Below are positions 2,024 to 40,112 of a stretch of DNA of 44,700 bases, piece after piece. A program made the translations under genes and the position numbers. Origin of the DNA: Escherichia phage vb_EcoS_bov11C2. The DNA lies in the sequence record MT884012.2. One strand, written 5' to 3'. The notes under the pieces are model-generated. The model ran no database searches. It was not told the origin of the DNA and was given only the letters and a program-made list of their open reading frames with translations. Each line of letters starts with the position of its first letter. Positions within the stretch are counted from its first letter, which is position 1.

Positions 2024-3544
2024 ATGACCGTTAACGTTGACAACCAGCACCCGCTCTATGCGCGCATTGCGCCAGAGTGGAAGATGATCCGCGATTGTGT
2101 AGCAGGGGAGCGCGCCGTGAAGGCGTGCGGCCCTTTGTACCTGCCTCATCCCGCCAGTGGCGACAATACTGACCCGAAAGCACGGGCGCGGTATAAGGCG
2201 TACAAGCAACGCGCGGTATTCCTGAACGCCACCGCCCGCACACTAAACGCGCTGTTAGGCGTCGCCTTTGCAAAACCTGTAAGTCTGGACCTTTCCGGGG
2301 TGATGGCTGACCTGATTGACGACGTAGACGGCAGCGGTATGCCATTGCCGCAACTTCTGCGCGGTGCTATGTCGGAAGTTCTGCAATCGGGACGCGCGGG
2401 CTTTATGGTGGACTACGACCGCCAGGCTAACTTTGATGAACTGGGTAACGTAGTGCCACAGACAGCCGCCGAGATGGCGGCACACCGACCGCTTATCCGC
2501 CTGTATACGGCAGAGCAGATCATCAACTGGCGGCAGACCCACGGCGTCGATACGCTAATTGTGCTGAAGGAAACGGACGAAATCAGCACCGAAGACCCTG
2601 ACGATTTCGCAAACCACGAAGTAACAATCTGGACCGAGCTTCGCATGATTGACGGCAAGGCACACGCCCGCCGCTGGTTTTACAACGCGGACACGTCCGA
2701 AGTGAAGATGGACTTGCCGCGAGGCTTCACCAGAACCGATCTTGTGCCGTTGGTGGATGCTTCCGGTAATGCGCTTACGCAACTACCGTTTTGCTGGTGC
2801 GGTGCGGTGGACAACAACGCAACGCCTGACGCCGCTCCGCTGGCGGATATCGCATCCATCAACATTAAGCACTACAACGCCGAAGCGGACGTCGCCGAGA
2901 TCGCGCACATCGTGGGTCAGCCTACCCTGGTTGCGACGGGCTTGACTCAATCATGGGCTGACAAGAACCTGAAGGGAGGCATTGCCCTCGGTGCGACTAA
3001 GGGCGTTATCCTGGGCCAGAACATGGACGCTAAACTGATCCAGGCGGAGGAGCGCAACTTGTCGGTTGCACTGTGTGAGCGTCGCGAATTGCAAATGGCT
3101 AAACTTGGCGCGGCCCTGGTCGAGAAGGGGACCGCACCTAAGACGGCAACCGAGGCGGCCTACGATGCGCAGACTGATAACAGTATCCTGTCGCTTATTG
3201 CCGGTAACGTTGAGAAGGCTTTCAACCGTGCGCTGCAAATCGTCCAACTCTTCACCGGTGACACCGCCGACCAGCGTGTGACGCTGAATAAGTTCTACAC
3301 CGAGATCACGGTTGATGCGCAGCTTATGACCGCGATGATGTCGGGTGTGCAGACGGGTACGGTCCGCCTGGCTGATTTCATCAAGTGGATGATGGCGCAG
3401 GGTGTCATCGACGACTCGCAAACCGTCGAGCAGGTTGAAGACGAATTGCGGAATCAGAATCCATTGCCTCAAATGTCCCCTGATGCGGTAGAATCTACCG
3501 AAGAAGACCCGGACAAGGTAGCGGACAATGGCGAAGACAATTAA
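2024..3544 (+). CDS. portal protein
   Basis: 506 aa ORF immediately after the large terminase, RBS AAGGA, acidic C-terminus; call rests on position and size. Confidence 0.75.
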   Translation: MTVNVDNQHPLYARIAPEWKMIRDCVAGERAVKACGPLYLPHPASGDNTDPKARARYKAYKQRAVFLNATARTLNALLGVAFAKPVSLDLSGVMADLIDDVDGSGMPLPQLLRGAMSEVLQSGRAGFMVDYDRQANFDELGNVVPQTAAEMAAHRPLIRLYTAEQIINWRQTHGVDTLIVLKETDEISTEDPDDFANHEVTIWTELRMIDGKAHARRWFYNADTSEVKMDLPRGFTRTDLVPLVDASGNALTQLPFCWCGAVDNNATPDAAPLADIASINIKHYNAEADVAEIAHIVGQPTLVATGLTQSWADKNLKGGIALGATKGVILGQNMDAKLIQAEERNLSVALCERRELQMAKLGAALVEKGTAPKTATEAAYDAQTDNSILSLIAGNVEKAFNRALQIVQLFTGDTADQRVTLNKFYTEITVDAQLMTAMMSGVQTGTVRLADFIKWMMAQGVIDDSQTVEQVEDELRNQNPLPQMSPDAVESTEEDPDKVADNGEDN

Positions 3545-5079: not shown

Positions 5080-5844
5080 TTAGCGCGGAATGCCGCAAAT
5101 CTCGTTAAGTGTCTTCACATCCAGCGCCACTGCCGTGGATTTTGGCTTGTCCGGGTACGGGATGAATTGCTCGACTTCAGGCCATGCCTTAATCAGCTTC
5201 TTGTCAGTATTGTGCAGGTCCAGCACACCGGTAACGGTCAACTTGAATGCGTCATACTTCGCACGCAATTCGCGGCGGGCCTGGTCGTTACGGTCCAGGC
5301 GCTTACAGAAGTCATGGTCCGCAGGGTAATCTGCGCGACCGCGAGGGAGATATATCGGCAGCGCTTTCCCGTCCTCGTCCACTTCGCACACTGACGCGAG
5401 CATAACTGTCTCGAACCCCGGAACGATATCGCCGAGATCAGGCGCGAGCTTATTCATATATTTCTCTTCCCAGTATCCGCGATGTACGCGGTATCGGCGA
5501 CCGTCACCGCTCAAGGACAAGGTGCGAACATTTCCGCCTGCGTTGATTTCGAAAGTGGCGTCGTAAACGCTGCCGATACCTTTCGGGCGGTCGGTGTTAT
5601 AACTATATGTCGCCTTGTTGGTGTATACACAGACGCCGTACATCTGCGACTGGTCGTCGCGAATTGCCTTGATATGCTCGCGGAGCGCTGCGAACGTGCG
5701 AATGCCTTCCGGCATACAGTCCAGCGTTATTGCGTACGCCAGATCGCGTGAGTCCATCATGATTTGTTTGGCTTCGGTTGCGATTTCGTGGTCGCGCAGG
5801 ATGTTAGATAGGATCTGATTTTTAATGTCTTTTGTCAGTCTCAT
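5080..5844 (-). CDS. hypothetical protein, antisense island in head module
   Basis: 254 aa ORF on the opposite strand to all surrounding late genes; no confident family assignment. Confidence 0.6.
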   Translation of the reverse strand: MRLTKDIKNQILSNILRDHEIATEAKQIMMDSRDLAYAITLDCMPEGIRTFAALREHIKAIRDDQSQMYGVCVYTNKATYSYNTDRPKGIGSVYDATFEINAGGNVRTLSLSGDGRRYRVHRGYWEEKYMNKLAPDLGDIVPGFETVMLASVCEVDEDGKALPIYLPRGRADYPADHDFCKRLDRNDQARRELRAKYDAFKLTVTGVLDLHNTDKKLIKAWPEVEQFIPYPDKPKSTAVALDVKTLNEICGIPR

Positions 5845-11196: not shown

Positions 11197-11559
11197 ATGG
11201 CTAAAGCACCACTCTTTACACTTGACCCTAAGCCGACCTTTAAGCTGCCGATTGAGATCCCGCGCCCTGGAGAGAACGAACCCGGCAAGATGACGTTTAC
11301 CGTACGCCACCGCCCGATCGACGAATTTTCGCAAACCATGCAGGACACCGAACGAAAGCTATCGGAATATGACGACAATGACCCGGACGGCTTTAACGTT
11401 ATGGTCGAGGCCATCATGCACGTCGCGGAAGGCTGGAATCTGCCAGACGAATTTAACGCGGAGAACGTCCGCCGCCTGGTGGTCAACTACCCACGCGCGT
11501 TCGGTGTGTTCCACACGTCGTACTATCTCGAACTGATGGGATTGCGTGAAAAAAACTAA
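11197..11559 (+). CDS. tail assembly chaperone (G-like)
   Basis: ATG 11197 with RBS GGAGA; 120 aa; ends 700 nt before tape measure; contains slippery heptamer A-AAA-AAC at its 3' end. Confidence 0.7.
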   Translation: MAKAPLFTLDPKPTFKLPIEIPRPGENEPGKMTFTVRHRPIDEFSQTMQDTERKLSEYDDNDPDGFNVMVEAIMHVAEGWNLPDEFNAENVRRLVVNYPRAFGVFHTSYYLELMGLREKN

Positions 11560-11873
11560 TTGAGGCGGCGCGACGCTTTTATGGCCCGCCGCCACCCTCC
11601 GAAGATTTAGCCGCAAGTTTATGGGGCGCGGCCCCCGAAGATGTTTGTCCGCCTGTTGCGCTATGGCCTGACAACGCGAAGATAGTCGCGGTCTTCACAG
11701 ATTGCGCCACGCAATGGCGCACCGGATTTGGTGGCGCATACGGCATCGACTACGGCGTGCTGGAGTGGTTATTTAAGATGCACGGTATCGAAAACGAACA
11801 GCGCGCGTTTAAAGATATCAAGCTAATGGAACGAATCGCGCTTGATGAGATGGCGCAGCAGAACCCCGCATAA
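11197..11873 (+). CDS. tail assembly chaperone GT fusion via programmed -1 frameshift
   Basis: Slippery A AAA AAC at 11550-11556 just before the G stop; the -1 frame from 11556 is open for 105 codons to TAA 11871-11873 with no ATG of its own. Confidence 0.6.
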
Positions 11874-11877
11874 TGAA

Positions 11878-12190
11878 GCGGGACAAAACGGGATGTCCCG
11901 TTTTGTCCCACCCCACAAATGTGCATATCTAATCACTTCCATTGCATAATCTAAAAGCGGGACAATCGGGACGTCCCGTTTTGTCCCACCCCACAAATGT
12001 GCATACCTATTCGGATTTCGTGCATAAACTAAGCGGGACAAAAAGCGGGACAAACAAGGTGCGGGACAAAGCGGGACAGCACCCCCGTCCCAGCCAGTGC
12101 TGCCGCGGTTTTTAGCCGATCGGGACAGGCGGGACAAACCCCAGTCTTTCAGACTAGACGGGGGTCAATGGCCCCCCTCGTCTGAGACTG
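11878..12190. repeat. GGGACA iteron/palindrome array R1
   Basis: At least 10 GGGACA copies plus inverted copies; 30-bp perfect palindrome at 11880-11909; second imperfect palindrome 11959-11987; 71-bp unit 12021-12091 and 52-bp hairpin unit 12139-12190 each with 1 mismatch to 39549-39716. Confidence 0.85.
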
Positions 12191-12258
12191 CATAAGGTTT
12201 GTTTTAAATTCGCTGATACAATATCAATCGGCAACTGCATAAAAAAGGGGACTGCATA

Positions 12259-14901
12259 ATGGCAGATCAAGCAGCAGGCATCACGCTAAAGGTCGATGCC
12301 ACACAAGTCAGAACGGCAAATACGGCGCTGGACTCGTTCGCACAGAAGTCCGAGACTACGGAATGGAAAGCTAAGAAATTAAACGACACACTCGGCAACA
12401 CGAAAAAGGTGACGGGTGACGCCGCGGGCGGAATGGGGAAGCTGGCGAACGAATCGCAGCGCGCCGCCGATGGCATGACGAAACAAGAGCGACTTGCCAA
12501 CCGGTTAGGCATGTCGACCAAAAACCTGGGCTTTGCCTCGCGTAACGCCGCATTCCAGTTACAGGATATTGCGGTAACGCTTGAGATGGGTATGCCTGTT
12601 CACCGCGTCATGCTTCAGCAGTTACCGCAGCTAACTGGGGCGTTCGGTGGACTGGGTAACACGCTGCGTTTTGTTGCGGGCTTCCTCGGCCCAGTGGGGA
12701 TCGGCCTTGCTGCCTTGACGGCAACGTTAGGCGTAGGGGTGGCAATTACGTCCCGCGCAGAAAACCAGGTCGCAGCGCTTAACAAGACGCTGGCGCTGTC
12801 AGGTAACATTTCCGGCCTAACTGCAAACCAGATCCTGGTGCTATCCGAGAACGCCGAGCGCATGGGCGGGTCGTTCCGCAAGACGCGTGACACAATCCAG
12901 GCGCTGGCGGCGGCGGGTGTGAAAGCGGGTGGTGACTTCGGCGCACTGGCGAAGGTAGTGAATGACTTCGCGAAGGTGTCCAGCCAGCCGATCGAGGATG
13001 TGGTCGCGGCGGTGGCTAAGCTGTCTACCGACCCGGTAGGTGGCTTGCGAGCATTGGCGGATAAGTATCACGTCGTAAACGAAGCGCAGATCCAGCAGGT
13101 ACAATCCCTGGTGGATATGGGTCGTGAGACTGAAGCGGTGGCGCTGGCTAATAAAACAGCCGCGGCGTCGTTCACCACCATGACCAACGATATTAAGTCC
13201 AACATGGGAACGCTCGAGCGGTCGATGAACATCGTCACATCGGCAGCGAAATCTATGTGGGATGCAATCCTGGATGTTGGACGCGCGCAGTCCTCGAATG
13301 AGTCCGAGATGAAAGCGCGTGAGTCATTGCAGCGACTGACCACGGCTTACTATGCCGAGATGAAAGCGGTAAACGCTGCCGGTGGGGTGATGACCGAAGC
13401 GCAGAAAGCGCGTATTAACATGCTTTACAGCGAACTGGTAGCCCAGGAAAAAGTAGTGGCGTCGCTAACCCTGCGTAACCGTGCCGAGCGAGACAACGCC
13501 AGCGCCGCGGAACAATCAGCGAAGGCGAACGAGGAGGCCAACCGCACCGCCCGCGACCGCGCCGCGTTCGAGAAGGAGTACGCGACCAACGCGAAGCGGC
13601 GCGCCGACGAGATCGCCCGCCTCAATTTGCTGAATAAGCGCGGCGTGATTGATGAGAAAGAACTTGCCGAGGCGGTGAAGCAGGTCAACGAGCGTTACAA
13701 AGACCCCGCCCCGAAGAAGGCCGCCGCTGTTCGAGTCGATGCAGGGATGAAAATGCTGGAAGTAGCACGGAGCGAACTGGCACAGCTTCGTGAGTCTGGA
13801 AAGCAGATCGAAGCCAACGCATCGACGCAGACCCGCACGCAACGCGCGCAAGCGGCCTTAAACAAGCTGATCGCGGATAATGAGCAGTTAATTGCTGCGA
13901 GCAAAGAAAGAGCGCTAACGGCAGCCGAAAAGCAGCAGATGGTAGAATTCGGACGCGTGAAGGAAGTGCGCGAGCAGATCGTCGAAGAAGCCAAATTGCT
14001 GGACGCGAAAGAGAAGCAGGTCAAGGCGCACGCGCAGATCGACGCCTTCGTTAAGAACCAGAACGCCGAGCTAAAAGCCACCGCGGCGGGCTATGCGCTT
14101 TCCACTCGCGAAGCGGCTAACCTGCGCGAAGAATTGCAGCTAATTGATCGCCTTAAGCGGGTTGGCGCTAGTGATACCGATATTGATCTGGCGGTGTCTA
14201 AGCTGCGCGAAGTGCAGGAAGCACAGACAGGGGCTAACGCCTCGCTATGGGATGGCTTCAGCCGCGGGCTTAAGGATAGCGTGGATGATATGGGTAACGG
14301 ATATACGCAGATGGCGTCACTCACAAAATTCACGTTCGGCGCTATGCAGGACACGATGAACAAGTTTTTCGAGACTGGCAAGCTGAACGCAAAGGATATG
14401 GTTAAATCCATCCTTAGCGAATTAATCAAGCTGGCTACATCGCAGGCATTCAAGTCCATCGTTAGCGCTTTCGGTGGCGACGGCGGCAAAAACGGATTGT
14501 TCGGCGCTATCTTCTCGGGCCTAACTAAGAATGCGGACGGAGGAGCGTACGCAGGGGGCAATCTCGCGGCCTATTCGGGGAAAGTGGTAAGCCAGCCAAC
14601 CTTTTTCAGTTATGGCGTCCAGGCGTTCGCTAAGGGCGCAGGATTGATGGGGGAGGCTGGACCCGAGGCTATCATGCCGCTTAAGCGCGGCCCGGACGGA
14701 AAACTGGGCGTTGCCGCTGCCGGTGTAGGCGGAGGGATGATTGTAACAACCAACGTTAACATGGGGACCGGTAAGACGGATACCAGTGTTAGCGGACCAG
14801 ACCCGCGCACAGCGCAGGCGTTCGGAAAGCAAATCACCGAGTCGGTCAAGGCCGAGATCGTGAAGGCGACGAAACCGGGTGGTGTACTTTACAAACGATG
14901 A
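12259..14901 (+). CDS. tail tape measure protein
   Basis: 880 aa, Ala/Gln/Glu-rich coiled-coil core, Gly-rich hydrophobic C-terminal region, located between the GT chaperone and tail tip genes. Confidence 0.9.
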   Translation: MADQAAGITLKVDATQVRTANTALDSFAQKSETTEWKAKKLNDTLGNTKKVTGDAAGGMGKLANESQRAADGMTKQERLANRLGMSTKNLGFASRNAAFQLQDIAVTLEMGMPVHRVMLQQLPQLTGAFGGLGNTLRFVAGFLGPVGIGLAALTATLGVGVAITSRAENQVAALNKTLALSGNISGLTANQILVLSENAERMGGSFRKTRDTIQALAAAGVKAGGDFGALAKVVNDFAKVSSQPIEDVVAAVAKLSTDPVGGLRALADKYHVVNEAQIQQVQSLVDMGRETEAVALANKTAAASFTTMTNDIKSNMGTLERSMNIVTSAAKSMWDAILDVGRAQSSNESEMKARESLQRLTTAYYAEMKAVNAAGGVMTEAQKARINMLYSELVAQEKVVASLTLRNRAERDNASAAEQSAKANEEANRTARDRAAFEKEYATNAKRRADEIARLNLLNKRGVIDEKELAEAVKQVNERYKDPAPKKAAAVRVDAGMKMLEVARSELAQLRESGKQIEANASTQTRTQRAQAALNKLIADNEQLIAASKERALTAAEKQQMVEFGRVKEVREQIVEEAKLLDAKEKQVKAHAQIDAFVKNQNAELKATAAGYALSTREAANLREELQLIDRLKRVGASDTDIDLAVSKLREVQEAQTGANASLWDGFSRGLKDSVDDMGNGYTQMASLTKFTFGAMQDTMNKFFETGKLNAKDMVKSILSELIKLATSQAFKSIVSAFGGDGGKNGLFGAIFSGLTKNADGGAYAGGNLAAYSGKVVSQPTFFSYGVQAFAKGAGLMGEAGPEAIMPLKRGPDGKLGVAAAGVGGGMIVTTNVNMGTGKTDTSVSGPDPRTAQAFGKQITESVKAEIVKATKPGGVLYKR

Positions 14902-36848: not shown

Positions 36849-37178
36849 ATGAATGTAAACGACGCAATCGAAATGTTAACGAAGACTGTTTGCAGTGAGA
36901 CAAGCCGGTCATGGGCATACACCGATGCCGTAGGGGCTGTGTTATTTGAAATCGAACGACTGCGCAGTATCGAAAAAGAATTGCGCGCCAGGCTGGAACT
37001 ACTCAACGGTACAGCAGCAAGCAAGCTGCAAAAACACAATGAAGAAATGGAAGAATACAAAAAGCAGGTTATCCGTTTGCGCGCCGAGGGCAAATCCTGG
37101 GCGATGATTGCTGAGTTGACCGGAATTAATCAGAGCACAGTTCGCTCCTGGGTACGCAATAATAAAACTTCTAAGTAA
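36849..37178 (+). CDS. HTH DNA-binding protein, candidate early regulator
   Basis: C-terminal helix-turn-helix SWAMIAELTGINQSTVRSWVRN; first gene of the rightward operon. Confidence 0.55.
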   Translation: MNVNDAIEMLTKTVCSETSRSWAYTDAVGAVLFEIERLRSIEKELRARLELLNGTAASKLQKHNEEMEEYKKQVIRLRAEGKSWAMIAELTGINQSTVRSWVRNNKTSK

Positions 37179-37188
37179 GGCCGCGGCA

Positions 37189-39453
37189 ATGAGCTTAATT
37201 AAATTCGCTGTAACAAAACCCGCTAAAAAAGGCGAAAAAGCCAGGGCGGAAAACTTCCAGATGACGACCGATGAGTTTTTCGAATTTATCAAAGATGCGA
37301 AAGAAATATCCTCGGTGCATATCAACAAGACGGAAGATAAAGCCGAGTATGCGCGCCGCAAGCGTAAGGCCGATGGCATCGTGGCGTATACCAGTGACGG
37401 ATTGCGTCGTAAGACCAGTGCGGTGGACCGCTCGATCCTGTTCTTTGATATTGACCGCACCGACACCCGCACCCTGCGCCGCTGCCGTAAGGCGTTCATC
37501 GACGCGGGTCTGGAACACGTATTTCACACCACCACCGGCGACCGCCACCCGCTGAAGGGCGGCACGCGTTGCGCCCGTTTCCTGGTGCTCACTGACAAGC
37601 CTGTACCGGCTGAAGACCTGGGCCGCGTACAATATGCACTATTACACCAACTGGGTCTGTCAGATGTGGACTTCGACGATTGCACGAAAGACACAAACCG
37701 CCTGATGTACCTGCCACACCAGCAGTCTGTTATTAAGTGCCACTATGGCAAGCGCGCCAATGTGCGTCGTCTACTCCGTCGGGCGGACAAGCTGGGGGTG
37801 GAAAAAGAGGAAGTACGCCGCGAGCTTACCCAGGGCGACGACGCAGTGGCAGACGGCATTCTGGACTGGTGCTTCCAGGCCGGATTCGAGGAGTTATCTT
37901 CTGGTCGTGGTTATGAAGTGCCGTGTCCTAACGAACATCTGCACAGCGGCGAAGGGTCGACGGCTATCATGGTCAAGGATGGTGAGATCCGTTTCAAGTG
38001 TATGCACACTGGCAACGAGTGTTGCTCGGAACTGAACAGACACCAGCACCTGGCGCTACGTCTTATCGGGATCCCGGACCACCTGAACGTCGAACCGCAC
38101 AACATGTCACGTAAGCAAATCGCCGCCATCCTCCCAGGACTGGACGACGAGGAAGTGGAATCATGCTATGCGCATATCGTTGATGCGGTCGGAGACGGCG
38201 ACGAGTACGGCGTATGTACCGACGCTGACCTGGATAACGAACCGGTCGCACTGTTCAGTAAGCACGACCCTATCATCGAGGGGTTGATTAACTTTAAATC
38301 GACCTGGTATATGGCTGGCGAGTCTAACATCGGTAAATCGTTCTACGTGCTGGGCCAAATGGGCGCTGTTGCCGCGGGTATTCCGTTCGGCGGTGCGAAG
38401 GTCGTCCAGTCTCATTGCTTCTATTTCGACGCGGAAGGTGGCGAAGCCTCCAACCAGCGTAAGGAAGCATTGCAGATCAAATATGAGCACGACCTGGACA
38501 AGCTGCACATTATCGATCTGCAATCACGCGGCTGGGATATCACCAGCAAGTCCGGCTTGCGTGAAGTTATCAGCTTCATCAACCGCACCGCTAACGGCGA
38601 ACCGGTTGGCCTGGTGGCGTTCGACTCACTCAACCAGACGGTTGCGTTGCGGTCCGCCGATGCCAAACCGTTCGACGAGAACAACGCCAGCGATATGGGC
38701 GAAGTGGTCAAAGCGCTGAAGGCCATCGCGGAAAATACAGGCGGCAGCGCGGGCGTCATCCACCACCCGGCGAAGGGTGCAAACGGCAGCAGATCTCCCC
38801 GTGGGTCCGGTGCGCTGCATGGTGCTGTCGATTCTGCGTTCTTCCTGGAGCAACCAGACGACAACCAGCCCGGACAACTGAACCTGTATCACGAGAAGGC
38901 ACGTAACGGCATCAAGCAAGCGCCGCGCGGCTTCGTCCTGCTCAAGTGCAAGGTGAAGGTGGATCTCCGCAAGTCCGAGGCGTTCGAGGCACACCAGTCC
39001 ACCAGCACAGGGCCGGACTTCGGCGATGTAGTTGCCGGTTGGGACGTCAAGCCAATTGCATCCACGCCACGCGACGAGACTCTTTACCTCGTACCGGTCG
39101 CCCTGGCACCGTTCGCCATCGAACAGGCGAAGGCCGCGGGCAAGGCCGCAGTTAAGGAGGAGAACGCCGCAGGACCGCGCAACGAAAAAGAGAAAGTGCT
39201 TTATGCGGCACTGGAAAAACTGATGGAAGATAACCCGGACCATACCGGATTCAGTAAATCGGCAATTGTACGCCAGGCGGGATTGGCAAAAGGCGGCACA
39301 TCGACGAAGGCAATCGACGATATGGTCGAGCGCGGCGTGCTCGGTTTTTATACAGATCCGCACACCGGGGCCATCTATGGGTCGTCAAATATCGTCATCA
39401 AAACGAATATACCCATCACGCTTTCGGCGACCGATGACGACCTGAAAGATTAA
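37189..39453 (+). CDS. primase-helicase (AEP-type primase-polymerase N-domain fused to RecA/DnaB-like ATPase)
   Basis: N-terminal hydrophobic DxD motif LFFDIDRTD; central Walker A GESNIGKS and Walker B VGLVAFDSLNQ; 754 aa. Confidence 0.7.
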   Translation: MSLIKFAVTKPAKKGEKARAENFQMTTDEFFEFIKDAKEISSVHINKTEDKAEYARRKRKADGIVAYTSDGLRRKTSAVDRSILFFDIDRTDTRTLRRCRKAFIDAGLEHVFHTTTGDRHPLKGGTRCARFLVLTDKPVPAEDLGRVQYALLHQLGLSDVDFDDCTKDTNRLMYLPHQQSVIKCHYGKRANVRRLLRRADKLGVEKEEVRRELTQGDDAVADGILDWCFQAGFEELSSGRGYEVPCPNEHLHSGEGSTAIMVKDGEIRFKCMHTGNECCSELNRHQHLALRLIGIPDHLNVEPHNMSRKQIAAILPGLDDEEVESCYAHIVDAVGDGDEYGVCTDADLDNEPVALFSKHDPIIEGLINFKSTWYMAGESNIGKSFYVLGQMGAVAAGIPFGGAKVVQSHCFYFDAEGGEASNQRKEALQIKYEHDLDKLHIIDLQSRGWDITSKSGLREVISFINRTANGEPVGLVAFDSLNQTVALRSADAKPFDENNASDMGEVVKALKAIAENTGGSAGVIHHPAKGANGSRSPRGSGALHGAVDSAFFLEQPDDNQPGQLNLYHEKARNGIKQAPRGFVLLKCKVKVDLRKSEAFEAHQSTSTGPDFGDVVAGWDVKPIASTPRDETLYLVPVALAPFAIEQAKAAGKAAVKEENAAGPRNEKEKVLYAALEKLMEDNPDHTGFSKSAIVRQAGLAKGGTSTKAIDDMVERGVLGFYTDPHTGAIYGSSNIVIKTNIPITLSATDDDLKD

Positions 39454-39548
39454 AATTTGCGCGCATTGGTTGCCGTTTTAAGTGTTTTTATCTGGTCGTA
39501 TTGGTTGCCGTGTAGTGTAGATATAATGAATAGTTATGCATTGAAACT

Positions 39549-39716
39549 GCATAAACTAAGCGGGACAAAAAGCGGGACAAACAAGGGGCGGGACAAAGCG
39601 GGACAGCACCCCCGTCCCGCCCCGGATGACGCGGCTTCCAGAGGAGCGGGACAGCGGGACAGCACCCCAGTCTTTCAGACTAGACGGGGGTCAACGGCCC
39701 CCCTCGTCTGAGACTG
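39549..39716. repeat. GGGACA iteron array R2 (copy of R1 units)
   Basis: 70-bp unit 39549-39618 and 52-bp hairpin unit 39665-39716 each differ by 1 nt from R1; six GGGACA copies. Confidence 0.85.
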
Positions 39717-39876
39717 AATAAAATCCGGGGATTGCAAAACACACGGCAGCATGATGCGAAGTGCGGTCGCGGATGAACTAGGCAACCAATGCTAGTAGCA
39801 TTATGCTGAGTGAAAAATGCGGTTTGCAGTTGCAGCAGATAGCGATCAACTTTTTCATGCGCGTGATTAATATTGG

Positions 39877-39921
39877 TTGCATCCGCCCAGGCACCCTGCT
39901 ATATTGGTTGCACACCAACAG
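39877..39921 (+). promoter_or_regulatory. sigma70-like promoter with ATTGGTTGCA pair and operator-like inverted repeat
   Basis: TTGCAT (39877-39882), 17-nt spacer, TATATT (39900-39905), TTGGTTGCACACCAA at the predicted start, then RBS AGGAGG and ATG 39933. Confidence 0.5.
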
Positions 39922-39932
39922 GAGGGCGGAAC

Positions 39933-40112
39933 ATGAAAACCGAAATGGTTAATAAGCGCGAAATCAAGATCGGCGATACGGTAGTCCACAACGGGGAGCT
40001 TCGCACTGTGTGCAAGCGAGCGTTTAGCATCGATGGATTTATGGGCCTGCTACTTTGGGGCGACAGCTATCGTTTAGGGCATAAACTGGTTGAGAGGGTT
40101 ACGGAACTATGA
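39933..40112 (+). CDS. hypothetical protein
   Basis: ATG 39933 with RBS AGGAGG; 59 aa. Confidence 0.45.
   Translation: MKTEMVNKREIKIGDTVVHNGELRTVCKRAFSIDGFMGLLLWGDSYRLGHKLVERVTEL

Follow-up and report, generated by a model that had tools for sequence, protein, structure and literature searches.

The phage studied is a virulent Dhillonvirus, and the window (44,700 nucleotides) is its whole genome. Between the genes for the G/T tail assembly chaperone and the tape measure protein lies a block of short repeats (in region A), which begins 6 bases past the chaperone stop codon (11871–11873) and ends at the tape measure ATG (12259). The −1 frame of the chaperone is open across 11550–11873 and its product matches DUF1799, and the tape measure gene product matches TMP_2 and Tape_meas_lam_C. 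The features of region A and its upstream boundary are as follows.

About 11548–11556: slippery run GAAAAAAAC of the tail assembly chaperone
11550–11873, + strand: T part of the G/T tail assembly chaperone (−1 frame, DUF1799), which forms the upstream boundary
11880–11909: palindrome 1, GGGACAAAACGGGA-TG-TCCCGTTTTGTCCC, holding the short repeat twice direct and twice inverted
11922–11956: degenerate box pair of tandem unit 1, TGCATATCTAATCA, 7 bp, TGCATAATCTAAAA; 21 bp start to start
11959–11987: palindrome 2, an imperfect copy of palindrome 1
12000–12034: box pair of tandem unit 2, TGCATACCTATTCG, 7 bp, TGCATAAACTAAGC
12035–12091, + strand: direct repeats R1–R4, GGGACA at 12035, 12047, 12063 and 12073 (spacing 12, 16 and 10)
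12087–12091: inverted copy GTCCC, for which pairing with R4 is possible
12092–12120: locus-specific spacer, kept among Dhillonvirus copies of region A and unlike the region B spacer
12122–12136, + strand: direct repeats R5–R6
12142–12190: long hairpin or palindrome, imperfect, its 5' arm rich in G and its 3' arm rich in C
12191–12258, + strand: stretch of 65% A+T with ACTGCATAA copies and the ribosome-binding site of the tape measure gene
12214–12222: extended −10 promoter-like site TGATACAAT, in the A+T stretch before the tape measure gene

The dense GGGACA block before the tape measure gene is real. The window holds 26 exact matches to GGGACA, 11 of which lie in 11880–12136 (8 direct and 3 inverted), and the GGGAC core occurs 14 times in the region A block (9 direct and 5 inverted). 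The expected number of GGGACA per 313 bp is 0.064 at the rate seen elsewhere in the genome, or 0.18 from base composition, and the excess in region A has a Poisson probability of approximately 1.7e-21. A sequence-only reading of this DNA had reported at least 10 direct copies; its total and its chance estimate held, whereas its direct count was slightly high against the exact count of 8. The same reading had described a perfect palindrome (14+2+14) at 11880–11909, an imperfect second palindrome at 11959–11987, a repeated tail, which is TCCCACCCCACAAATGTGCATA at 11906–11927 and 11984–12005, an AT-rich stretch (65% A+T when measured over 12191–12258, versus 46% genome-wide), and three (G/A)ACTGCATAA copies at 12186–12195, 12233–12242 and 12250–12259, all of which were borne out. 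The TCCCACCCCACAAATGTGCATA tail belongs to a 78-bp tandem unit, the two copies of which are 83% identical. The CTGCATAA copies were also present. TGCATAA and CTGCATAA are the half-sites of a conserved palindromic box pair and form no separate feature.

A second copy of the element after the primase-helicase gene

The element is not confined to the tail operon. A second array, with six GGGACA copies at 39562–39661, was overlooked in the earlier reading; it lies in region B, directly after the gene for a 754-aa primase-helicase. Positions 12021–12195 and 39548–39721 are approximately 90% identical and define a shared module of about 175 bp. The features at this locus are as follows.

37189–39453, + strand: candidate initiator gene (754 aa), with AEP-type primase, AAA_25/RepA-like helicase and C-terminal winged helix (approximately residues 664–744)
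39501–39508 and 39522–39527: TTGGTTGC and a TATAAT hexamer, respectively, just upstream of the region B boxes
39527–39561: region B box pair, TGAATAGTTATGCA (9/10 to the ARG-box core), 7 bp, degenerate TGCATAAACTAAGC
39562–39618, + strand: direct repeats R1–R4 and the inverted copy, with spacing equal to that in region A
39648–39661, + strand: direct repeats R5–R6
39668–39716: long imperfect hairpin, with 1 loop base different from the region A hairpin
39741–39751, + strand: ACACGGCAGCA, between the hairpin and the next promoter, kept in all related lineages
39877–39905, + strand: sigma-70-like promoter TTGCAT-17-TATATT before gp49 (39933), overlapped by two TTGGTTGC copies

Each of the 158 GenBank relatives had a match to region A, which in 146 covered at least 80% of its length, and the hairpin was present twice, on the same strand, in every Dhillonvirus contig of IMG/VR. 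The length of the shared module was 168 ± 1 bp in 26 copies. The identity between the region A and region B modules (0.88–0.90) was at the level of orthologous copies across genomes (0.89–0.91), and the two copies within a genome resembled each other a little more than copies taken from separate genomes did (permutation p = 0.012), indicating that one sequence is maintained at both loci. The GenBank record of phage SO-1 already annotates these repeats. An apparent expansion of the array in TH11 was set aside as a 515-bp duplication in a record marked UNVERIFIED, and a comparison of the module with the plasmids in PLSDB gave no match.

The ordered layout after the primase-helicase gene was kept in the related lineages L026, L027, L031, L067/L072, TS6 and FSL SP-031, the primase-helicases of which are 37–48% identical. 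This layout consists of an ArgR-operator-like box pair, three to four direct short repeats and inverted copies, followed by two to three further repeats, a long imperfect hairpin and a sigma-70 promoter. The short repeat itself differs by lineage (GGGACA, GGGATA, CCGACA, CGGACA, GGGGAT or GGGGGAGA), whereas the spacing of approximately 12/16 bp persists. A repeat that changes while the layout stays is the behavior expected of sites for a co-evolving phage-encoded specificity protein, and the occurrence of both direct and inverted copies fits recognition of double-stranded DNA. The extra copy before the tape measure gene was found in Dhillonviruses only; relatives such as Salmonella phage TS6 have no array at that position, and all GGGGGAGA repeats of TS6 lie within a single element. 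Judged by sequence comparison, region B is the ancestral copy and the tail operon copy is a Dhillonvirus-specific duplicate. A scan of viral contigs with TGAATAGTTATGCA returned mostly chance matches and gave L055 and L067/L072.

Box pair, hairpin and candidate initiator protein

The box pair is palindromic, and its distance of 21 bp start to start corresponds to 18-bp boxes 3 bp apart. The geometry of ARG boxes and their conserved positions (G4, A6, T7, A12 and T13) have been described (PMC6640053, PMC4381063). We scored box pairs out of 20 against the core TGAATnnnnATTCA, the ARG-box core being TGAATwwwwATTCA. The scores were 19 for TS6, 17 for L026, 17 for L027 and 16 for L067, all at the 21-bp phasing; with the same score, real E. 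coli operators reached 19 (argI), 17 (carAB), 17 (argECBH) and 14 (argR), and the genome background was 14 at most. The pairs of these four lineages score as ARG boxes. In the studied phage, box 1 of region B alone was good (9/10) and box 2 was degenerate, giving a pair score of 13, and the units of region A scored 12–13. At the box position of tandem unit 2, phage HK578 has GTGAATAGTTATGCAG, the same as the region B box.

Like ArgR operators, the phage sites, which are candidate targets of ArgR, are paired palindromic boxes at exactly 21 bp. They differ from ArgR operators in that the box center AGTT is more conserved than ArgR binding alone requires, and in that they occur without arg-regulon context. 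In a comparison with the accessory site of ColE1 cer, no cer-like Xer core sites were found in the phage; ACTGCATAAGGTTTGTTTTAAAT loosely resembles dif, but it is missing from region B and from the other lineages and was judged to be a chance match. Two candidate DnaA boxes in region A, TGTGCATAT and TGTGCATAC (8/9 to TTATNCACA on the other strand), were rejected because they are not conserved within the genus. Other Dhillonviruses have GTGAAT at that position, so what is conserved there is the TGAAT/ATTC palindrome rather than a DnaA box.

The region B hairpin is approximately 49 bp long and lies 215 bp past the primase-helicase stop codon. Within the genus the stems of the hairpin are invariant and the loop is variable; outside the genus, the pairing is preserved by stems of different sequence. 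RNAalifold showed compensatory changes in 6 of the 11 hairpin pairs, and the folding energy ranged from −21 to −33 kcal/mol among lineages. The origin of plasmid pRN1 is a stem-loop just downstream of the rep gene that is likewise conserved in structure and not in sequence, and the authors of that study noted similar stem-loops 3' of phage rep genes (PMC4234260); the phage hairpin has this combination of position, conserved structure and unconserved sequence. The hairpin first seemed more stable on the minus strand, but G-U counts were similar on both strands and the sign was reversed in L028, and its strand therefore cannot be called. A search of Rfam 15 gave no family at gathering score, only miRNA-like noise (E 0.9–3.4).

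In the models, the 754-aa protein comprises an AEP primase, a RepA-like helicase and, at the C-terminus, a winged helix, a design shared with P4 alpha and pRN1 ORF904. The AEP fold was matched with an E-value of 1.4e-5 and the AAA_25 Pfam family with 2.3e-19, whereas the direct match to the RepA chain 1g8y was weak. The three-part design of AEP primase, hexameric helicase and C-terminal winged helix is that of a pRN1-type Rep. The Foldseek E-values of the winged helix were weak (0.03 or higher), which counts against assigning the element to an origin. The N- and C-terminal domains were not detected in Pfam and PDB sequence searches, and a match to BurrH was set aside because no single matched stretch was above threshold alone. 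As protein queries, the C-terminal fragment gave 2 matches only and the N-terminus of the tape measure protein gave none.

Proposed origin-type binding sites and competing explanations

Of the explanations considered for the element after the primase-helicase gene, a replication-origin-type binding site for that protein is the most likely. In this reading, which we favor tentatively, both arrays would be origin-type sites bound by the initiator, and region A would be a second such site comparable to oriR of phage SPP1. Among the functions suggested in the sequence-only reading, an iteron-type origin and a binding array for a phage DNA-binding protein fitted the comparative evidence best, because the element adjoins the primase-helicase gene, the repeat varies while the layout is constant, and the protein ends in a winged helix; the small HTH protein, which had been put forward as a binder, fitted poorly. 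Control of late transcription, the third function suggested there, is less likely.

In the proposed mechanism, region B (39527–39716), 3' of the candidate initiator gene, would be an origin-type cis element, of which region A (11874–12258) is the duplicate. The winged helix would bind the short GGGACA repeats as double-stranded DNA in both orientations, which would give rise to direct arrays and palindromes, and a host protein on the conserved box pair, with ArgR as the best guess, would bend the DNA beside the array. Assembly of the protein, perhaps together with transcription from the nearby promoters, would open the long palindrome and the A+T-richer flank, after which the helicase would load and the AEP primase would begin synthesis on the exposed strand. 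Region A would then be a second initiator-binding site within the late genes, acting either as a second origin or as a bound-protein fork barrier. Such a barrier, like the one proposed for SPP1 oriR, would help replication change over to concatemer synthesis.

The repeat cluster is far above chance (11 copies in 313 bp and 6 in region B), as in iteron origins. Several observations count against an origin. The repeats are short (6–8 bp) and unevenly spaced (12, 16, 10 and 9), unlike classical iterons of 17–22 bp. No clear DNA-unwinding element with repeated 13-mers was found; beside the arrays, region A has a 68-bp stretch at 65% A+T, and the flank of region B has approximately 50%. L022–L025, L028 and L029 encode the same three-domain protein with no array beside the gene, L028 and L029 having a reduced remnant only, 0.8–1.5 kb downstream, and the element is absent from Kagunavirus and Jerseyvirus. 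Each of six lineages has its own repeat variant, and the recognition helix also begins differently among them, although general divergence would produce a similar picture. The fit between helix and repeat is also imperfect, since L026 (RRPAM) and L027 (RRPAV) nevertheless have different repeats. GC skew was rejected as an origin marker because it tracks gene orientation only, and T7-type primase recognition clusters were rejected because, although GGGAC resembles GGGTC, no trinucleotide is common to all lineages.

The closest precedent for two sites is Bacillus phage SPP1. Its protein gp38 binds direct-repeat origins at two places, one within the initiator gene and one that breaks up the virion-assembly genes and is framed by transcription signals (PMC6316719). 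Both phages are lytic siphoviruses of approximately 44 kb with headful packaging. Both have two similar repeat sites for one initiator (bound by gp38 at SPP1 oriL and oriR, proposed here), one at a replication gene and the other within a conserved virion-assembly gene order, separated by 13 kb in SPP1 and 17 kb in this phage. There is no sequence similarity between them, and oriL lies inside gene 38, whereas the site described here is 3' of the gene. Where this phage has a single polypeptide as its candidate, SPP1 divides the work between a distinct origin-binding protein, a loader, a DnaB-type helicase and host DnaG. The A+T-rich unwinding element of SPP1 is clear, whereas ours is weak.

The other comparisons concern the protein and the hairpin. 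The C-terminal winged helix of P4 alpha binds origin repeats (PMC4234260, PMC2777425). Alpha resembles the 754-aa protein in combining a primase, a hexameric helicase and a C-terminal winged helix in one polypeptide, but its primase is of DnaG/Toprim type and its helicase of SF3 type, in contrast to the AEP primase and RepA/AAA_25-type helicase here, and the best fold matches of the phage winged helix did not include that of P4 (1ka8). P4 carries octamer repeats, direct as well as inverted, at ori and at crr, which are separate regions; one of the two adjoins the alpha gene. P4 is without a long hairpin of this kind. A helicase of RepA/AAA_25 type is shared with the oriV system of the IncQ plasmid RSF1010 (strong in Pfam, weak for 1g8y). 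RSF1010 has iterons beside a G+C-rich segment, and its hairpins (ssiA/ssiB) are primase start signals. It differs from the phage in having three separate proteins (RepC, the RepA helicase and the RepB' primase), 20-bp iterons and two hairpins on opposite strands. RSF1010 has been named as a comparable initiation system (PMC4234260). The pRN1 operon encodes a small repressor and a prim/pol-helicase-winged-helix protein (PMC4234260). The phage likewise has a gene for a small DNA-binding protein and a three-part Rep gene in an operon, with a site just past the rep stop codon that contains a long stem-loop of conserved structure and conserved flanking sequence. Unlike the phage, pRN1 has no iteron array, its helicase is of SF3 type, its host is archaeal, and its stem-loop is approximately 100 bp long as against 49 bp.

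Both copies of the element lie just upstream of promoters and are oriented with transcription, and a transcription-control element would look alike. The main rival, which we consider rather unlikely but worth weighing, is a transcription-control site or insulator at operon boundaries. A phage regulator would then occupy the repeats, and either ArgR or a phage dimer would occupy the box pair. Such an element would set the timing or level of the promoter of gp49 and of the extended −10 promoter of the tape measure gene, its hairpin would block read-through, and the duplication would have brought the tail-tip genes under the control that also governs the late operon. Near-consensus promoters follow the element in distant lineages (TTGACT-17-TATTAT, TTGACA-17-TATTGT and TTGACG-17-TATATT), which is consistent with control of transcription; however, the arrays lie 80–300 bp upstream of promoters already near consensus, a poor position for activating or repressing them in the classical way. 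Phage Ioannina has a canonical terminator after T, then region A, then the tape measure promoter. A U-tract is missing from the hairpin in Dhillonviruses. After an insertion in L028 and L029, the hairpin, ACACGGCAGCA and the promoter have stayed with the downstream operon, and not with the primase-helicase gene. The box pair is a match to ArgR operators, whose usual role is in promoter regulation (PMC6640053), and a promoter-like site, TTGGCT-17-AAAAGT, overlaps the boxes in TS6 and L067. A promoter scan gave nothing notable in region A or B. A separate promoter-associated motif, TTGGTTGC, with 19 copies in the genome, already resembles a general regulator site, and no candidate regulator tracks the arrays, the upstream HTH gene being swapped between lineages.

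Alternatively, the element could act as RNA, in a leader or 3' UTR, with sites for an RNA-binding protein or with antitermination or processing hairpins like HK022 put and lambda nut. We regard this as very unlikely. The hairpin is stable as RNA (z-scores −1.7 to −3.4) and shows the compensatory changes described above, but neither strand is clearly preferred and a DNA palindrome fits as well; it also belongs to no Rfam family at gathering score. Alternative pairings are possible, for example of R3 or R4 with the inverted copy, yet the repeats point in either direction, and a protein that binds single strands would not recognize both equally well. The Dhillonvirus site TTGGTT-15-TATAAT could start a transcript across region B, but this upstream promoter is not conserved across lineages. 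An RNA sponge of CsrA type was ruled out because the repeats of L027 (CCGACA) and L067 (CGGACA) have no GGA.

Marginally less credible still is an operator array for the small, 109-aa HTH protein (36849–37178), acting as a repressor or with the array as an anti-repressor sink. Its gene lies in the same operon as that of the primase-helicase, its C-terminal part matches HTH_23, HTH_28 and Sigma70_r4_2, and the 68% relative L170 keeps a related HTH protein together with GGGACA repeats. However, identity to the ortholog in HK578 is no more than 49% over 67 residues while the arrays are the same, and distant relatives of the same architecture have an unrelated XRE/Cro-type protein at that position, with or without arrays, which makes the HTH protein a poor candidate for the binder; the genome-wide TTGGTTGC motif would be a more natural target for an early regulator.

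Least probable of all is a plain intrinsic terminator or a packaging signal. The HK578 and WFI records annotate a rho-independent terminator at the first palindrome, but on the + strand no T-run follows the palindrome stems and no intrinsic terminator (G+C-rich stem followed by a T-run) was found in 11500–12600 or 39300–40100, the scan flagged only two matches on the − strand, at chance level, and a terminator would need neither 14 repeats nor a second copy. The pac site of P1 is also made of clustered hexamers, and three records begin or end within region A; these ends are most likely assembly breaks, since a 175-bp repeat is a likely place for an assembler to open a circular assembly. P22 gp3- and Sf6-type small terminases have their pac site within the terS gene. 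The phage packages its DNA by headful (PMC9022532), and its small terminase is similar to P22 gp3 and to that of Sf6, which argues against a pac site here.

The Dhillonvirus group was described as "generally understudied" in an announcement paper (PMC9022532), and among the papers searched, none names a replication origin or treats these repeats. Dhillonviruses and their Salmonella relatives are common therapy and model phages (e.g. in the BASEL collection). For engineering, the sites should be kept when phage genomes are refactored and might find use in phage-dependent replicons. The box pair raises the possibility of an unexpected link between a host amino-acid repressor, ArgR, and the control region of a lytic phage. 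It is possible, though improbable in this full form, that the phage has an origin tied to arginine supply through the ArgR box pair, with a self-contained initiator that reads very short, fast-evolving repeats beside a hairpin of conserved structure, and an element copied into the tail operon as a second origin or as a programmed fork barrier driving the change to concatemer synthesis. If the arrays are origin-type initiator-binding sites, they would mark the likely origin or origins of approximately 160 sequenced phages and would offer a candidate code for initiator-DNA recognition, in which six repeat variants are paired with six winged-helix variants. Region A would then be the second example, after SPP1, of an origin copy within structural genes.

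The repeat block before the tape measure gene and its second copy

The window (44,700 bp) covers the whole genome of a virulent Dhillonvirus, a siphovirus in the HK578/SO-1-like group. The sequence-only reading had proposed a non-coding gap before its tape measure gene. This gap was genuine (385 bp, starting directly past the stop codon of the chaperone T frame), because the T frame, with its DUF1799 match, is open to 11873 and the tape measure gene starts at 12259.

Features around region A, the GGGACA repeat block
11197-11559, + strand: G part of the tail assembly chaperone, Phage_TAC_4 match
11550-11873, + strand: open -1 (T) frame of the chaperone, DUF1799 match, with a run of seven A (~11549-11555) at the overlap
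11874-12258: region A
12259-14901, + strand: tape measure gene, TMP_2 and Tape_meas_lam_C matches

The stretch 11550-11873 probably encodes a G/T-type -1 frameshift product with the A-run as slippery site, and two small CDSs of the record that overlap the T frame (38 aa, 11757-11873; 43 aa, 11579-11710, - strand) are probably mis-annotated. The CDS at 2024-3544, annotated as 'minor tail protein', occupies the expected portal position directly after the large terminase gene; the product of the same-position gene in the relative L170 matches DUF4055.

Exact GGGACA occurs 26 times in the window genome, and 11 of these copies lie within 11880-12136, with 0.064 expected in 313 bp at the rate of the remaining genome (Poisson P ~1.7e-21). 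The reported density far above chance was thus confirmed, and the reported number of at least 10 direct copies was slightly high (8 direct and 3 inverted). The perfect 14+2+14 palindrome (11880-11909), its imperfect copy (11959-11987), the repeated tail and three ACTGCATAA copies were all present where they had been described. Two 78-bp tandem units, 83% identical to each other, make up the first half of region A. Six further GGGACA copies cluster at 39562-39661 in region B (39527-39716), which starts 74 bp past the stop codon of the gene for a 754-aa primase-helicase (37189-39453) and is followed by a run of small + strand genes and then by lysis and terminase genes. Alignment within the window showed ~90% identity between 12021-12195 and 39548-39721.

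Elements of the module shared by regions A and B
1: box TGCATAAACTAAGC
2: four direct GGGACA, spaced 12, 16 and 10 bp
3: inverted GTCCC
4: spacer of 28-29 bp, unlike in sequence between the two regions
5: two further direct repeats
6: 49-bp imperfect palindrome CAGTCTTTCAGACTAGACGGGGG...CCCCCCTCGTCTGAGACTG

Only region A has two additional upstream units, each with a palindrome and a box pair, and it ends in a 65% A+T stretch with an extended -10 site (TGATACAAT) 37 bp ahead of the tape measure start codon. The raw repeats are already known, because the GenBank record of Sodalis phage SO-1 marks both sites ('region A' and 'region B') as mutually similar direct, inverted and palindromic repeats, annotated without established function.

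Region A was matched in 158 of 158 related GenBank records (at least 80% of its length in 146), and every Dhillonvirus contig in IMG/VR had the hairpin twice on the same strand. Alignments of 14-16 phages showed invariant GGGAC cores and hairpin stems, and a variable hairpin loop and variable inter-repeat spacers; the module length was 168 ± 1 bp (26 copies). The identity between regions A and B (0.88-0.90) equalled that of the same site across genomes (0.89 and 0.91), indicating that one sequence is maintained at both sites by selection, gene conversion or both. Module copies from the same genome were slightly more similar than cross-genome copies (permutation p 0.012).

Some Dhillonviruses (L007, L008, L012, L016 and L020) carry an extra ~54 bp within the first 55 bases past the primase-helicase stop (window ~39454), which duplicates a TTGGT(T/C)GCC site and adds the palindrome ATATGGGGATTCCCATAT; the window phage is without this segment. 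In phage TH11 (L192, MT446389.1 15368-16372), a 515-bp tandem duplication spans the T-frame end and the entire region A; it may be an assembly artefact from the repeats, and the record is flagged UNVERIFIED. Phage Ioannina (L193) has a canonical intrinsic terminator, GGCCGG-gtaatt-CCGGCC-TTTTT, directly past the T stop codon (125-150), and the motif TTGGTTGC adjoins its tape measure promoter; both are missing from these places in the window phage.

The element in other lineages

Relatives were gathered by searches with the 754-aa protein (37-48% identity). The same ordered layout was found directly 3' of the orthologous gene in L026, L027, L031, L067/L072, Salmonella phage TS6 (L166) and FSL SP-031, with a different short repeat (GGGATA, CCGACA, GGGGAT, CGGACA or GGGGGAGA).

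Order of the element in distant lineages
1: two 14-bp palindromic boxes TGAATAGTTAT(G/T)CA, exactly 21 bp apart
2: three to four direct repeats, the first three ~12 and 16-17 bp apart in most lineages
3: one or two inverted copies
4: spacer
5: two to three direct repeats
6: long imperfect hairpin, G-rich in its 5' arm
7: half box of TTATTCA type
8: ACACGGCAGCA (window counterpart 39741-39751)
9: near-consensus sigma-70 promoter of the next operon

The hairpin differed in sequence in every lineage with its pairing kept (compensatory changes in 6 of 11 pairs, RNAalifold), and every lineage version had a folding energy of -21 to -33 kcal/mol. L170 (68% identity) retained GGGACA and the same hairpin. 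When the whole TS6 genome was read, all repeats were confined to this one element, and the gap ahead of its tape measure gene was an unannotated T frame with no array. Because the TS6 repeats lie at one site and the layout stands 3' of orthologous genes, region B is the ancestral site and region A its duplicate, which was present in all Dhillonviruses examined and in none of the other lineages examined.

No array adjoining the gene was found in L022-L025, L028 or L029, which have ordinary terminators there; a remnant reduced to hairpin, ACACGGCAGCA and promoter lies 0.8-1.5 kb further downstream in L028 and L029. The element was not found in Kagunavirus or Jerseyvirus. In L029 (6940-6990), six tandem TGGCAGCA units stand behind ACACGGCAGCA, close upstream of the late promoter; this is an expanded form of the conserved motif at window 39741-39751. 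The more distant relative L030 has a primase-helicase without the winged-helix C-terminus, and past this gene (5400-5670) lies an A+T-rich stretch with seven GCAACCA and several TTATGCA boxes, bracketed by a perfect ~28-bp inverted repeat (GCCCCGGGGCACTTATTGATTTATAAGG); it would be an origin-like or control region of a different kind at the same position.

The E. coli ArgR operator consists of two 18-bp semi-palindromic boxes with 3 bp between them, most conserved at G4, A6, T7, A12 and T13 (PMC6640053, PMC4381063), and the spacing of the phage box pair is identical. Box pairs were scored by plain match count against TGAATnnnnATTCA at 21-bp phasing.

Box-pair scores (maximum 20)
argI operator: 19
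carAB operator: 17
argECBH operator: 17
argR operator: 14
TS6 (1110-1180, - strand): 19
L026 (5305-5345): 17
L027 (5175-5215): 17
L067 (5320-5355): 16
Window region B (39527-39561): 13
Window region A units: 12-13
Best elsewhere in the window genome: 14, at 2 of 89,330 positions only

Box 1 of region B (9/10) was the one good box of the window, and in the region A boxes TGCAT/TGAAT and TATTC remained as half-sites. Across the genus, half-sites were conserved and the centre was variable. Host ArgR may bind the box pair, and a phage protein could equally be its reader.

The primase-helicase and the proposed function of the element

The only Pfam match of the 754-aa protein was a mid-protein AAA_25 domain, to whose family the RSF1010 RepA helicase belongs. 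A model of residues 1-350 (pLDDT 84) best matched the AEP domain of cyanophage S-2L PrimPol (E 1.4e-5), followed by LigD polymerase, Prim-PolC and herpesvirus helicase-primase. The protein is predicted to combine an AEP primase, a RepA-like helicase and a C-terminal winged helix. The start of the predicted recognition helix varies between lineages that differ in their repeats (GGT-STKAI, GGN-RRPAM, GGR-RRPAV, GGG-RYAAL, GGD-RYKIL, GGNSRRRSL), and its match to the repeat is not strict.

The same three-part design is found in P4 alpha and pRN1 ORF904. P4 alpha comprises a primase, a hexameric helicase and a C-terminal winged helix that binds origin repeats, and the pRN1 origin, proven by deletion and relocation, is a stem-loop, conserved in its structure but not its sequence, that lies just 3' of the rep gene; the pRN1 authors described comparable stem-loops 3' of the rep genes of phages (PMC4234260, PMC2777425). 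In SPP1, oriL lies inside the initiator gene and oriR interrupts virion-assembly genes between transcription signals; gp38 binds direct repeats at both, and a role proposed for oriR is fork stalling that sets off the switch to concatemer synthesis (PMC6316719). Because of this protein design and the SPP1 precedent for two sites, we tentatively favour, with slightly less than even confidence, a reading of regions A and B as initiator-binding sites of the origin type. Beyond the anatomy, distribution and folds observed here, we infer protein binding to the repeats and replication initiation at both regions. The winged helix would read the short repeats, a bending host factor, perhaps ArgR, would read the box pair, opening and priming would occur at the palindrome and its flank, and region A would serve as a second origin or fork barrier.

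The strongest rival, a transcription-control or insulator region, is possible but rather unlikely. Region A of Ioannina has a canonical terminator on one side and the tape measure promoter on the other, and the hairpin-promoter part of L028 and L029 has remained beside the downstream operon; however, the arrays are 80-300 bp away from promoters already close to consensus, and the genome has a separate promoter-linked motif, TTGGTTGC, in 19 exact copies (~2 expected; 0 of 100 shuffles reached 19). Nearly all copies are intergenic, many are paired, and several overlap sigma-70-like promoters (TTGCAT-17/18-TATATT). An early or late regulator of the phage probably has the motif as its operator, and the motif is also clustered past the primase-helicase gene in L030 and L170 (as GCAACCAA).

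Copies of TTGGTTGC in the window and examples of overlapping TTGCAT-type promoters
Copies 1-10: 6228, 6242, 22391, 25252, 25264, 27162, 27179, 30121, 33739, 33755
Copies 11-19: 36650, 39466, 39501, 39782, 39873, 39904, 40633, 43114, 43137
39877-39905, + strand: promoter before gp49
6249-6220, - strand: promoter
27186-27150, - strand: promoter

An RNA element is less supported and improbable. An operator array for the small HTH protein (109 aa, 36849-37178), which had been suggested as binder, is a shade more doubtful; this protein is a poor candidate because its sequence diverges strongly within the genus and an unrelated XRE-type protein takes its place in distant lineages with or without arrays. 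Pac sites or plain terminators are the least probable.

As origin-type sites, regions A and B would fit among known kinds of origin, with no new category. To our knowledge, the following are new within the literature searched: region A as the duplicated copy of an element conserved 3' of the primase-helicase gene, a lineage-specific short repeat inside a fixed architecture, a hairpin conserved by structure, the predicted AEP primase, RepA-like helicase and winged helix of the adjacent protein, and operator-grade ARG-box pairs as part of the element. Because these box pairs (19, 17, 17 and 16 of 20) score like real ArgR operators, their sequences suggest that these virulent phages have a host arginine-repressor site built into the control region past the primase-helicase gene.
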